A DNA stretch of 64,000 nt from an uncultured Methanoregulaceae archaeon. GTDB taxonomy: Archaea; Halobacteriota; Methanomicrobia; Methanomicrobiales; Methanospirillaceae. This document shows positions 30,001 through 33,000 of this stretch, in pieces (position 1 is the first letter of the stretch; each line of letters opens with the position of its first letter). The stretch covers positions 2,016,001 to 2,080,000 of the forward strand of contig OY969564.1 of NCBI GenBank assembly GCA_963701095.1, read 5' to 3'. The position numbers are program-made.

Positions 30001-33000
30001 TCAATCCTAAAGGGACATCGATGTTCGAGCCGATCCATGGATCGGCGCCAAAATACAAGGGTATGGATGTGGCAAATCCGATTGCAACCATTTGGGCCGG
30101 TTCACTTCTCCTAGACCACCTGGGCGAACACGAAGCTGCTGCGGCCGTAGTTTCTGCCATAGAAAAAAGCATAAAGGACGGTGTAGTTACAAAAGATCTT
30201 GGCGGGACTGCTGGAACTGCACGTGCAGGGAGCTATATCTCTGAATGTGTGCGCAGAGAGTAATCCCCATTTCAGCTGTTTTTAATGCCGTATGGAACTC
30301 CATCCTGATCGAAAAAATAATACCGGGATCACCGTTGATACCCTTATCAGAGAGATTAACAGGCAGGGGAAAACCCCAATCTGCGTTGGAATCGATCTCA
30401 CCGGGTCGGAACGACGGGCATCCGGAATGTGCATATTAAATGGACGGAGTGCCAGTCTTTTCCTTGCCCATAGTGATGATGAGATTCTCAGGATAATTGA
30501 TACAGCAGGCGCAGGCTTGGTCTCTATTGATTCGTCGCTTGGACTCCCCGCTGGGAGATGTTGTGTTGAGGATTCCTGCGAATGCAGAAAGTATGGGATT
30601 ATGCGGGAATGCGAACGTATTCTCAGAAAACGGGGCATTAGAATATACCCAACCCTGATAAAAAGCATGCAGCAACTGACAATGCGGGGAATGCGGCTTG
30701 CTGGGATCATCAGGGATCAGGGATACGAAATTATTGAAAGTTATCCGGGTGGGACACAGGACATCCTGAACATCCCCCGGAAAAAAACTGAACCATTCCG
30801 TCTTAAGTCAGGACTCTCGGATATAGGATTTACCATTTATGCTGAACATGAAAGGATTACTCACGATGAGCTCGATGCTCTTACCTCTGCCTTGGTCGGG
30901 TATTTTTATCTTTCAGGCTGGTACGAGGCTGTGGGAAACCCTTCTGAAGGATTCCTGATTCTTCCAGATCTATCCTCTGTCGATAGATGAAAAGGAAGTT
31001 TGGTAGAACTCAGAGCTCTGGTGGATGTCTAAAATTCGAATAAAAACTATGTTAAGAAGTGCAAAATAAAAAGAAAATTACAGCGTCTATTTTAGTACAT
31101 CCGGTATATCAAGGGAAATATCCCCGTCATCTTCCGTTTTTTTGGGGAAAAACAGGGATTTAAGGGTAGAAAACGGTCCTTGCCCCTCATTTACCGTTTG
31201 ATCACCCCTCCTTTTTTTCATACCCGCATAATTTTTCAGGAGAATTTCAGCCTCTATAAGACCTGCTTCGACTTTTTTCTTTTCCGTGACATCTATGATG
31301 TAACCGGCAATTGCGACTGTGTTTTTATTCTTTATTATGGGAATTTCGTTAACTTCCACCCAGACCTTAGTATCACTACGACCCTTAAACTCCAGTCGGT
31401 AAGGAGGTTCTCTCCTGCCGGAAGAGATAGCTTTGAGGGTCCTTTCCAGTCCTTTCGCATTAATCGGATTGTCGGTCAGATAATCGGTCCAAAGTCGTTT
31501 ACCTGACAATGGAACCTTCCCGAGAAGCACCCGTAACCGGGGACTTACATAATTCAGGGCGTGATCGGTGCCGTGAGTAAAATACATCTCTTTTCCGCTT
31601 TCGAGAAGTAGCATCAGTTCAGCGTCCCGCTTCATGAGGGCGTGGTGCTCTCTTTTGAGTCGCGTGATATCCCGCCCAGTAGCAATTATTGAGTTTACCT
31701 TACCGTCACCGTCGGTGACCGATCGTGCTGACCAGCTAATACAAAGTGAACCCTGCGGTGATGAAATCCATTGTTCAACCTGACAGGTATGGGGGGGTCT
31801 GAAGAGCTTGGTCATCTGGGTTGCCATTACTTCAGAATACCGCTGATCGGTAGCTGGCATAAAAATACTCCCGGTCAATTCCTCCTTAGTTTTTCCCACG
31901 ATATGGCAATACGCCGGATTGACAAACAGAAGGCGTCCCTCAGGACTGAACTTTACCAGCATATCCTGTTGGTGTTCCACGAGTTCTTTGTATGGGGAAT
32001 CATCGCAGGTATCCATTTTTAAAGCTCCAATAGTGTGAGAGGACAGCTCTGATGTTACTTCACTATGCTTAGTACACGTTTCCTTTTTCAACTATTAATG
32101 TTGCACATAATTAGTGCCAATCCCTCCAAATCACGAGAGGAATTTTAAATATAAAAAGGAAAAAAGGGAGAAGATGGTTTAAACCAGTGCACTGATTTGC
32201 TGCTGGCTGGTGATTCTGCGTTCTTTCCAGACAGCTGACGCCGGTTGTTCGGGGATTCGTGCGATAGTGGCATGACGCTCCCGGCCATAAATTGCTGATC
32301 TGAGAGCCAAGAGCGAAACCGTGAAGTTTCCTGCTTCAAAGAGTTCGATATTGAGGGCTTTACCGGATCCCGAAACCTGTGCAAGACCGCAAATCGTACC
32401 AAGGTAGTAATTCCATTCGTGCGCAAGTATCTCGACCTGGACGACAACTTGCCTCCCGGAGATCCCCCGTGACAAATCCCCCAGTCGGATTGCATATCTG
32501 GCTCCCATGACATGCAATTCCACGACCTCGTGGAGTCTGCCTTCACTATCGATCGCCCTGCATCCTGTCCGCTGGATATAACCCGCTTTCTGCATCATAC
32601 ACGACCACCTTCTGTCGTAATAATGCATATTTTCAAATCACTATATAATCCGGGGCCGTGTGCAGGGTGAAAGTGAAAAGAAAGGTGGTTCGATGATTAT
32701 GGCAAACCTTTCTCTCGATAGAATATCTACTTCGGACACTTAGGCCTTTTTATCCATGCAGGCATTCAAGACGTGCTCCATAAAATGGAGCGTGCCACCT
32801 ATACCAACAAGTGGGGGATATGCAAGCCGGACCTGTCCCCGGAGAGGAGGGATTATACCCAAAAACGCTCTACCGGAGCTTAACGAACGCTCGAATGACG
32901 ATCCAATCACGAGATCCGGTTCGAGTACGGTGATTGTATCTCTGACTTCTTCGAGTCCGGTTAGTCTTTCTACCCGGTAATCCATGTTGGGCAGTGCAGA

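Follow-up and report, generated by a model that had tools for sequence, protein, structure and literature searches.

A small protein of Methanomicrobiales encoded behind a DNA-repair promoter box, with a plausible PC4/Whirly-type domain and a putative PCNA-interaction peptide

The gene g02282 lies in the 64,000-nt stretch of contig OY969564.1 (positions 2,016,001 to 2,080,000) analysed here, referred to as the window, from an uncultured archaeon of the Methanomicrobiales. It encodes a small protein behind a promoter box that also precedes recombination and repair genes. The gene and its signals are arranged as follows:

32179..32598, minus strand: coding sequence of g02282, 139 aa and a TAA stop, N-terminus MMQKAGYIQ
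32600..32619, minus strand: conserved 5' leader that contains the small hairpin UACGAC/GUCGUG; in Methanoregula, TACGACAGAAGGTGGTCGTGTATGATG hardly varies
32642..32648, minus strand: TATA box TTATATA, read from the sequence; the box core lies 18 nt upstream of it
32655..32678, minus strand: promoter box TTTCACTTTCACCCTGCACACGGC, 24 nt, 29.7 bits, with the core CACTTTCAC at 32667-32675
32153..32165, minus strand: oligo-T run after the stop codon, read directly from the sequence, a likely archaeal terminator (oligo-T works as a transcription terminator in archaea)

The open reading frame on the minus strand spans 32179-32628, and the ATG at 32598 is the true start, because the orthologues, all of which begin with M(M/L)xKAGY, align there and because, judged from the TATA box, transcription would begin near 32618-32620 and hence after the alternative ATG at 32628. 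Values of dN/dS between 0.05 and 0.17 were obtained for the 21 ungapped pairs among sequences L001-L007; the 14 pairs of L008 or L009 with L001-L007 were left out, since an indel inside the gene puts the ungapped comparison out of register and produces a spurious dN of about 0.9. Thus g02282 is, as in the initial annotation, a real gene for a protein of 139 aa, and it is under purifying selection. Contigs of relatives from wetland RNA libraries cover 32176-32591 with 6.5-13.5% of the letters differing, and one of them (419 nt) reaches a depth of 846, which shows presence in an RNA library, with DNA carry-over being possible. All five runs contained a small share of the sampled words (0.04-0.14). 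The contigs indicate presence and not transcript start or regulation. Concerning the leader, the hairpin was tried as a structured element and rejected: its folding energy of -6.2 kcal/mol (z -1.31) is not significant, as 25 of 200 shuffled sequences fold as well. A Shine-Dalgarno-like GGUGG (32605-32609, minus strand) occupies the 3' end of the hairpin loop, its last G belonging to the loop-closing pair, and Rfam yielded 0 matches over 31900-32900.

Database searches place g02282 in a family of its own. No Pfam family was matched at E<=1, nothing in NCBIfam at E<=0.01, and no family in PHROGs or PADLOC; when the PDB sequences were searched with a profile, the best match was an engineered protein at E 0.18, and the ESM Atlas contained no usable match. 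Fused or longer forms were absent at E<=0.001 among 8000 candidates, which is weak evidence on this point. Among 1.84 billion sequences, 73 representative clusters match, and 'hypothetical protein' is the only source name seen. Homologues occur in 43 of 61 genomes sampled, distributed, with the window's own genome excluded, over six families as 34/36 (f1), 2/5 (f2), 0/5 (f3), 4/5 (f4), 2/5 (f5) and 0/4 (f6), and therefore over four families. Outside the Methanomicrobiales, 0 of 40 genomes contained a homologue, such that the family was found in this order only. These results support a new, conserved archaeal family; they bear out what had been claimed before, namely the lack of any match in Pfam and NCBIfam, the occurrence in at least four families of Methanomicrobiales and the novelty of the family. 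Literature searches on the fold, on the regulon and on PCNA partners in archaea turned up no account of the promoter box or of the g02282 family.

The promoter box begins 80 nt before the start codon and is, with 29.7 bits, the top match of the genome. It is the box reported initially, for which 28.3 bits, the second rank and a distance of 82 nt had been given; the further claim that every homologue sits behind the box agrees with its presence upstream of all 41 orthologues examined, in four families (30 + 10 + 1). The matrix was built from 19 sites, none of which lies upstream of the g02282 family. In the 30 orthologues from the genus, the box scores 25.8-32.7 bits at -78 to -81, and (G)GTTATATA is kept at the TATA box. 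The genome contains 15 matches at >=13 bits and 7 at >=20 bits, compared with 1-6 and 0, respectively, in five Markov-3 simulated genomes. The box is non-palindromic, and the 18 nt between its core CACTTTCAC and the TATA box agree with the spacing of about 18-20 nt expected of the radA-box regulon of Methanomicrobiales. For Sulfolobus, a UV-promoter hexanucleotide A(N)TTTC about 6 nt before the TATA box has been described (PMC5817253). The core hexanucleotide ACTTTC equals this motif, yet its distance to the TATA box is about 20 nt, and the likeness is a lead only.

A second copy of the box is found in the window:

48230..48253, plus strand: promoter box, 28.7 bits, 80 nt before radA (48310-49287; Pfam Rad51, 268 bits)

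In this genome, the box also precedes a gene with Nre_N and Nre_C domains followed by an IMS Y-family polymerase (the nre-dinB operon), PolB copies (DNA_pol_B; NF004416, 947 bits) and an RNase_H_2 gene (a PolB-exo-like nuclease or exonuclease gene). Because its promoter carries the same box, g02282 belongs to this set of radA, nre-dinB, PolB and nuclease transcription units, and the box shows its co-regulation with repair genes. It may merely set a constitutive or cell-cycle expression of g02282. The box core lies upstream of radA in 34 of 35 Methanomicrobiales genomes, and the box is kept at radA in five of five genomes without a clear g02282 orthologue; in two of these five, both from f6 and 99% complete, the family profile has no match at all. 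The radA box is accordingly order-wide, with or without g02282 in the genome, a point absent from the initial annotation. Since radA stands behind the box even in f3 and f6, where a protein search did not find g02282 (0/5 and 0/4), the protein is dispensable for the regulon.

The same distribution bears on the idea that g02282 is an autoregulated transcription factor reading the box, in the manner of PBF-2 or PC4. Such a role would explain why its own promoter carries the genome's best box, and the closest folds include transcription regulators (PBF-2, and the PC4 family as treated in PMC7549692). The box, however, persists at radA in the genomes lacking an orthologue or any profile match, and beyond the order the core is kept at 11 of 24 radA promoters, with the protein in 0 of 40 genomes there, so that we regard this reading as highly improbable.

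What the protein itself might do is suggested by a predicted structure of its larger part:

32242..32598, minus strand: folded domain, residues 1-119, predicted beta4-alpha, beta4-alpha, beta

The AlphaFold2 model (m80a19c893d0c, 22 sequences) reaches a pLDDT of 85.6 and a pTM of 0.76, with block values of 90-97 up to residue 110 and of 79 over residues 111-120. It contains strands at 3-9, 14-16, 22-30, 33-38, 53-60, 64-75, 81-86, 90-95 and 109-114 and helices at 39-47 and 96-103, with no helix after residue 103. Four strands and a helix, occurring twice, define the topology of type I PC4-like/Whirly folds in PMC7549692, and the predicted, not experimentally solved, topology of g02282 fits this definition. 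The two halves of the domain align in register over beta3-beta4-helix (hhalign E 6e-4, probability 29%). In a VIA-align search, Whirly-type chains took ranks 1, 2, 8 and 12, with no Z above 7.0, while models without true relatives typically reach 7-8; Foldseek gave nothing at E<=0.001 in PDB or BFVD. The confident model of twice four strands plus a helix and the empty Foldseek result in the initial annotation were thereby reproduced, and the Whirly-like fold proposed there is plausible on topology and ranks. At the level of sequence, neither Pfam nor the PDB-sequence profile search linked g02282 to the PC4, Whirly, Pur, SsgA or MRP families. The domain is basic (median pI 9.3 in 32 sequences), Y7, W62, K80 and N83 are conserved in the family, and several of its residues are invariant. 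From the model, a type I PC4-like (Whirly/MRP/Pur-alpha) architecture of residues 1-119 is plausible.

In the known members of this class, such as the Whirly proteins PBF-2 p24 and Why2 and the trypanosome proteins MRP1/MRP2, curved sheets bind single-stranded DNA or RNA. Despite the general likeness in topology, there are some differences: sequence and profile similarity to g02282 are lacking, and Whirly and MRP proteins possess C-terminal helices, whereas the g02282 model exhibits an extra ninth strand instead, followed by the tail described below. Whirly proteins proper form a homotetramer (the 'whirligig'), whereas g02282 is known here from a single-chain model. PC4 and Pur-alpha were reported in 2013 as 'absent in archaea' (PMC3575825).

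A sister family, related to g02282 with an hhalign probability of 96.5% (E 9e-10, 88 columns), keeps the domain and lacks both the promoter box and the tail. Its loci are flanked by an integrase, a D12 methylase and a Cdc6-lid protein, i.e., they lie in integrated mobile elements, and in three of three loci the sister gene is situated directly upstream of, and overlapping with, a large ORF. This ORF has weak matches to phrog_19 (E 4.6e-4 and 5e-3) and no Pfam or PDB match even at its full length of 915 aa; on these weak matches, it is a candidate large primase/helicase-like gene. Look-alikes of the ORF in the Atlas carry PF27228, DUF3987, PriCT-2, D5_N and DnaB_C, which are leads only. The models of the two families agree, though not independently, because the families are homologous, and PC4 and Pur-alpha chains are missing from the best 50 listed in either VIA search. 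As the sister family sits without box or tail before a candidate primase/helicase-like gene, the fold appears to be a replication-linked module, which a host branch appears to have put under repair control.

This kinship could also mean that g02282 is a domesticated mobile-element gene with a role in the control of such elements and not in chromosome repair; after damage it might, e.g., block or license the replication of the elements. Besides the homologous family in front of a large helicase-like gene, the patchy distribution across families would fit, as would the several box-bearing promoters that precede genes near integrases (786227+). The chromosomal branch, however, has a fixed place after a cfbD-like gene in many Methanoregula, with a conserved end of the upstream gene (...CATGGA[CT]AAAAAGGC), and the strong purifying selection is as expected of a stable host gene; control of elements is therefore very unlikely.

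The part that the sister family lacks is the following:

32182..32241, minus strand: C-terminal tail, residues 120-139, predicted disordered, with RRIT and, at its end, QQQISALV
32182-32205, minus strand: QQQISALV, Q132-V139, the last 8 residues of g02282

The pLDDT falls below 50 for residues 120-139. The surrounding disordered region is otherwise variable, and Q132 is kept in at least 90% of 32 sequences. A Q-x-x-[ILVMF] within the last 14 residues is present in 26 of 43 full-length representatives, compared with 6.0% of 2470 background ORFs, and the strict motif with a hydrophobic position 7 in 15 of 43, compared with 1.5% of background ORFs (QSAISPWIAV, QSSITPWVAV, QMPLTAWV, QTLLSAF, QQRLGAFA). 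Other branches of the family exhibit Q-x-x-[IL]-x-x-[WF]-[VIA] at the same place. When QQQISALV is compared with the PIP motif Q-x-x-[ILM]-x-x-[FYW]-[FYW], positions 1 and 4 fit, whereas positions 7 and 8 are aliphatic; in general, Methanoregula tails have L/A/V/M and V in place of the canonical aromatic pair. Genuine clamp partners in the same genome, unlike the g02282 tail, keep F: RNase HII ends with QSNLSAFM, PolD DP2 with QLGLADFM, and Nre has QCTLSDFS 9 residues before its end. The aliphatic form ends only 2 of the 3228 ORFs of the genome, one of which is g02282. In 17 of the 43 representatives the Q motif is absent, and some lineages carry R-I-T-[DE]-[FY] instead. The PCNA gene is frameshifted in this assembly. 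Archaeal PCNA clients use C-terminal PIP motifs, according to PMC4929162, and the g02282 motif likewise sits at the extreme C-terminus after a flexible region. Judged from sequence, the conserved Q-x-x-[ILV]-x-x-h-h terminus resembles an archaeal PCNA-interaction (PIP) motif and is a putative one, and a disordered basic linker probably joins it to the domain. Neither the PIP-like peptide nor the mobile-element sister family had appeared in the initial annotation.

Tails of this kind are known from other archaeal proteins. NreA, NucS and TIP, non-core PCNA partners of archaea, resemble g02282 in being lineage-restricted and in having a disordered C-terminus with a Q-x-x-h-x-x-h-h peptide at its end, and in this genome the box precedes nre as well. 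In Haloferax, mitomycin C repair by NreA depends on the PIP motif (PMC4929162). g02282 exhibited no homology with Nre, NucS or TIP, however, and the Methanoregula tails are aliphatic where the aromatic pair stands. As an analogy, bacterial SSB-type proteins combine a nucleic-acid-binding core with a disordered, partner-binding C-terminal tail, and g02282 would be a candidate for the same layout of core, flexible linker and terminal docking peptide. SSB is an OB fold with an acidic tail, whereas the g02282 model consists of beta4-alpha repeats and its linker is basic.

If the tail were the active part, g02282 might act as a brake on the clamp, filling the PIP pocket of PCNA and displacing the replicative polymerase, with the domain as a stable body that binds no nucleic acid. 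Eukaryotic p21 serves as the comparison system here, together with TIP, the PCNA inhibitor of Thermococcales. A small protein with a conserved terminal Q-x-x-h peptide behind a disordered linker, co-expressed with repair genes through the box, would suit this function, and TIP is a small PCNA-binding protein proposed as an inhibitor in PMC4929162. Against it, conservation is stronger in the domain of 119 residues, with several invariant positions, than in the tail, which a mere body would not need, and the sister family retains the domain without any tail. A pure brake is thus quite unlikely.

SsgB is a cell-division factor of bacteria, and in actinomycetes the SsgA/SsgB fold positions the division ring. 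The resemblance of the model to these SsgA/SsgB-like proteins (3cm1) could point to an adaptor that delays or relocates FtsZ-based division after damage without binding nucleic acid. These proteins, however, have no tail and are not tied to a repair regulon, Pfam gave no match of g02282 to SsgA, and the basic domain, the PIP-like tail and the sister gene before a replication-type gene argue for DNA transactions and not for division. Such an adaptor is hardly likely.

The reading we prefer, at a rough probability of 0.45 for the explanation as a whole, is that the monocistronic gene g02282 encodes a small protein with an accessory role in recombination and repair of DNA, namely a PC4/Whirly-type nucleic-acid binder of the repair regulon tethered to PCNA, its binding activities being predicted from models and sequence. 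When the regulon is switched on, the cell would produce g02282 along with RadA and the repair polymerases, the g02282 tail would dock on PCNA, and the domain would bind or remodel single-stranded nucleic acid at a clamp-loaded repair or restart site. A bolder version, rather unlikely in its full form, makes g02282 the clamp-directed effector of a one-box Methanomicrobiales repair regulon: a PC4/Whirly-type protein captured from a mobile-element module and fitted with a PCNA tail, which after damage would load on PCNA. There it would hold single-stranded DNA for use by RadA and by the translesion or PolB polymerases, or else hold back replication in a p21-like manner.

Little has been established on how archaea other than the Sulfolobales organise a transcriptional response around DNA repair. 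As a small, soluble protein behind the genome's top-scoring box, g02282 provides a marker of such a regulon, and it is a candidate for the PC4/Whirly fold class in archaea. A new PCNA partner may also be at hand, in which the motif changes from aromatic to aliphatic within one family, and the link to a mobile-element replication module would offer a concrete example of an element gene that a host has taken into genome maintenance. If the bolder version is true, g02282 would be the first PC4-like protein of archaea to have a pathway assigned to it, and in Euryarchaeota the first PCNA partner encoded by a damage regulon.

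The true start of g02282 is the ATG at 32598, which gives a product of 139 aa, because every orthologue begins with M(M/L)xKAGY and because the position of the TATA box and the spacing of GGTGG agree with it. The elements concerned, together with radA, are situated as follows in the window:

32179-32628, minus strand: open reading frame containing g02282
7 nt before 32598, minus strand: GGTGG, upstream of the g02282 start
32600-32622, minus strand: 5' leader TACGACAGAAGGTGGTCGTGTATGATG, almost invariant across Methanoregula
32642-32648, minus strand: TTATATA box, its expected transcript start lying downstream of the ATG at 32628
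32655-32678, minus strand: 24-nt repair box, with ACTTTC inside its core at 32667-32675
48230-48253, plus strand: second repair box, before radA
48310-49287, plus strand: radA (Rad51, 268 bits)

A 6-bp hairpin is possible in the leader, with most of the Shine-Dalgarno-like GGUGG within its loop; its folding energy is unremarkable (z -1.31). The upstream neighbour encodes a nitrogenase-component-1-type oxidoreductase. An oligo-T run follows the stop codon. Since the next downstream gene, for a PAS-domain protein, is about 90 nt away, g02282 looks monocistronic. As stated in the initial annotation, the protein has no match in Pfam (E<=1) or NCBIfam (E<=0.01), and the same holds for PHROGs and PADLOC at E<=0.01; a profile search of PDB sequences with the family gave no match (best E 0.18), the ESM Atlas no usable one.

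The motif TTCACTTTCACCC(C/T)GCGCACGG, followed about 8-10 nt on by GGTTATATA, is found upstream of all 30 Methanoregula orthologues. The box also precedes another 10 copies, found in three other families and on fragmentary contigs, as well as one orthologue that belongs to a different genus of the same family (30.7 bits), such that 41 of 41 orthologues possess it, as had been claimed for every homologue. A first matrix, derived from the boxes in front of g02282's own orthologues, was compared with five simulated genomes (third-order Markov): at 13 bits or more, 15 sites exist in the real genome versus 1-6 in the simulated ones, and at 20 bits or more 7 versus 0. To avoid circularity, the g02282 family was excluded from a second matrix of 19 sites (10 radA sites taken from other genomes plus 9 further sites of this one), which gives 29.7 bits for the g02282 site, 28.7 for the radA site and 25.8-32.7 for the 30 orthologous sites, at -78 to -81. 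Reported before as the second-best match, the g02282 site ranks best in the genome with this matrix.

Concerning the other genes behind the box, two sets lie elsewhere in the window's own genome (G000):

1307520, plus strand (L044): nre gene (Nre_N + Nre_C), then an IMS Y-family polymerase gene; box of 24.8-27.5 bits
601711, 846427, 2109929 and 154031, plus strand (L045, L048, L046, L056): at least four type-B DNA polymerase genes, outside the window

The first two genes form an apparent operon behind the box. The type-B polymerase genes share the leader CAGTGCAGCAGGGATCCGGTG; two are intact (668-669 aa) and two are split into two ORFs each, and the one tested (L045) matches NF004416 with 947 bits. 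Similar promoters precede small ORFs of 84-87 aa in this genome, one of them adjoining an integrase; an RNase_H_2 / PolB-exo-like gene and several small genes without family match lie downstream of high-scoring sites, and a weaker site is situated upstream of mre11-rad50. Because of these genes, "repair box" is a fair name for what the box accompanies, a response to damage being no more than possible. That g02282 is a member of the box regulon is the firmest conclusion of this analysis, with a probability of roughly 0.85.

Among the radA loci examined (L065-L074 and L083-L131), the core [CT]A[CT]TTTC[AG][CT] precedes radA in 34 of the 35 Methanomicrobiales genomes, among them all five checked ones without a clear g02282 orthologue. 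Of 24 loci in other families of the phylum, 11 have the strict core and 15, by eye, ACTTTC, some 20 nt upstream of a TATA-like box. These counts point to a putative ancient, phylum-wide radA promoter element. A factor reading the box is the weakest of the rival roles for g02282, since the box persists at radA in genomes and lineages in which the protein was not found. According to PMC5817253, an A(N)TTTC hexanucleotide is essential in UV-inducible Sulfolobus promoters; the ACTTTC of g02282 is the same hexanucleotide but is placed about 20 nt before the TATA box, whereas that of Sulfolobus is described there as directly upstream of the BRE.

A protein search revealed homologues in 43 of 61 related genomes, distributed, apart from the window's genome, over the Methanomicrobiales families f1 (34/36), f2 (2/5), f4 (4/5) and f5 (2/5), in accordance with the at least four families proposed earlier; none were found in f3 (0/5) and f6 (0/4). 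Outside the order, the family profile gave no match at E<=0.01 in 40 genomes that represent 15 other families of this phylum. At E<=0.01, a word-indexed search retrieved 124 proteins, the matches listed being named only "hypothetical protein", from Methanoregula; among 1.84 billion representatives, a profile search at E<=0.001 matched no more than 73 clusters. Neither fused nor extended forms turned up, although this negative counts as weak evidence. Over 21 ungapped pairs among seven orthologues, dN/dS is 0.05-0.17; owing to an indel that puts the comparison out of register, 14 pairs joining L008 or L009 to these were left out. Contigs of four wetland RNA libraries, which cover the coding region with 6.5-13.5% of letters differing, show only that relatives are present in such libraries; a 419-nt contig of wetland metatranscriptome X4 (over 32176-32591, 50 differences in 416 nt) has a mean word depth of 846, far above the other contigs aligned there (2-18).

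Two Methanoregula genomes possess a second, more divergent copy of about 50-54% identity (L039 in G003, L040 in G004), whose aligned start shows no obvious ATG; it has no box (2/2) and an aromatic end ...QQRLSAFA of the PCNA-interaction (PIP) type. Furthermore, in three of the five checked genomes without an orthologue the family profile gave weak matches (E 2.5e-5 to 3e-3), with four copies in one of them. These matches define a sister family (98-116 aa; Methanofollis, Methanoculleus, Methanolacinia). The two families are similar in profile-profile comparison (probability 96.5%, E 9e-10, 88 columns). A rival explanation regards g02282 as a regulator of mobile elements: the sister genes are located in integrated elements (L075, L076, L077, L137; genomes G043, G038, G040), tail-less and, in the 3/3 examined, box-less. 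In each of three loci examined, the neighbouring genes include one for an integrase, a D12 DNA methylase or a Cdc6-lid protein, with a SocA_Panacea gene also nearby, and the sister gene overlaps the beginning of a large ORF, which measures 915 aa in its complete form. This ORF has no match in Pfam or PDB, exhibits by eye a Walker-A-like GKGKT and weakly matches phrog_19 (E 4.6e-4 and 5e-3); its Atlas look-alikes with PF27228, DUF3987, PriCT-2, D5_N or DnaB_C are leads only.

The AlphaFold2 model, from 22 sequences, is as confident as first described (pLDDT 85.6, pTM 0.76) and is composed of beta4-alpha, beta4-alpha and one further strand, with residues 120-139 disordered. This topology matches the definition of type I PC4-like domains in PMC7549692. 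The strand-turn-strand-helix segments of the two halves align in register (hhalign E 6e-4, probability 29%), and the domain is basic (median pI 9.3). Among 48,161 chains compared by VIA-align, Whirly-type chains occupy four high ranks (Z, then the second figure; models without true relatives typically reach a Z of 7-8):

rank 1: 2gia_A, MRP1/2, 7.0, 86 (rmsd 2.8 A)
rank 2: 3cm1_A, SsgA-like, 6.2, 83
rank 8: 1l3a_A, PBF-2, 4.8, 90
rank 12: 3n1h_A, StWhy2, 4.3, 96

The Whirly-like fold originally suggested is favoured by topology and by these ranks; against it, beta-barrel proteins (Tsp1, PevD1, Alt a 1) are interspersed between them, and Foldseek was blank in PDB and BFVD. On balance, the model makes a type I PC4-like / Whirly fold somewhat probable; an SsgB-like adaptor is a rival reading. 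The literature searched, subscription journals aside, contains no description of the g02282 family or of the box, nor of any type I PC4-like protein from archaea to which a role has been assigned; PC4 and Pur-alpha are stated to be absent from archaea in PMC3575825.

Within the disordered C-terminus, Q132, the first residue of a terminal peptide, is conserved in at least 90% of 32 diverse sequences. In 29 of 30 Methanoregula genomes the chain ends in Q-x-x-I-x-x-x-x, and 25 of these 29 read Q-x-x-I-S-A-[LAVM]-[VG]; other branches show QSAISPWIAV, QSLITPWITA, QSSITPWVAV, QMPLTAWV, QTLLSAF, QTVLPGFA or QQRLGAFA. Q-x-x-[ILVMF] within the last 14 residues is found in 26 of 43 full-length representatives (background 6.0% of 2470 ORFs of this genome), and the strict motif, hydrophobic at position 7, in 15 of 43 (background 1.5%). 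Two known clamp partners of this genome end similarly, RNase HII in ...QSNLSAFM and PolD DP2 in ...QLGLADFM, and Nre has QCTLSDFS nine residues before its end; according to PMC4929162, archaeal clients, NreA included, usually bind PCNA through C-terminal PIP motifs. However, the Methanoregula tail differs from PIP motifs in its missing aromatic pair, and the motif is absent from 17 of 43 representatives. In some lineages (P0126, P0127, P0132, P0136, P0142, L133) a conserved [RH]-x-I-T-[DE]-[FY] peptide replaces it and may constitute a second short docking motif; Methanoregula has RRI[TS] just ahead of its Q motif. Judged by these tails, binding of PCNA by g02282 can be proposed tentatively, at slightly less than even odds; a rival explanation would make the protein a PCNA brake.

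The PCNA gene itself is interrupted by a frameshift (G000:C1, about 205,150-205,900; L059), and the genes for RNase HII and two copies of PolB likewise seem to be split. The assembly is closed (2.63 Mb), and indel errors probably explain its completeness of 86%. Unlike these genes, g02282 is intact in it.

In the most economical candidate mechanism, g02282 would be a nucleic-acid binder of PC4/Whirly type that is tethered to the clamp and acts alongside RadA and the repair polymerases.
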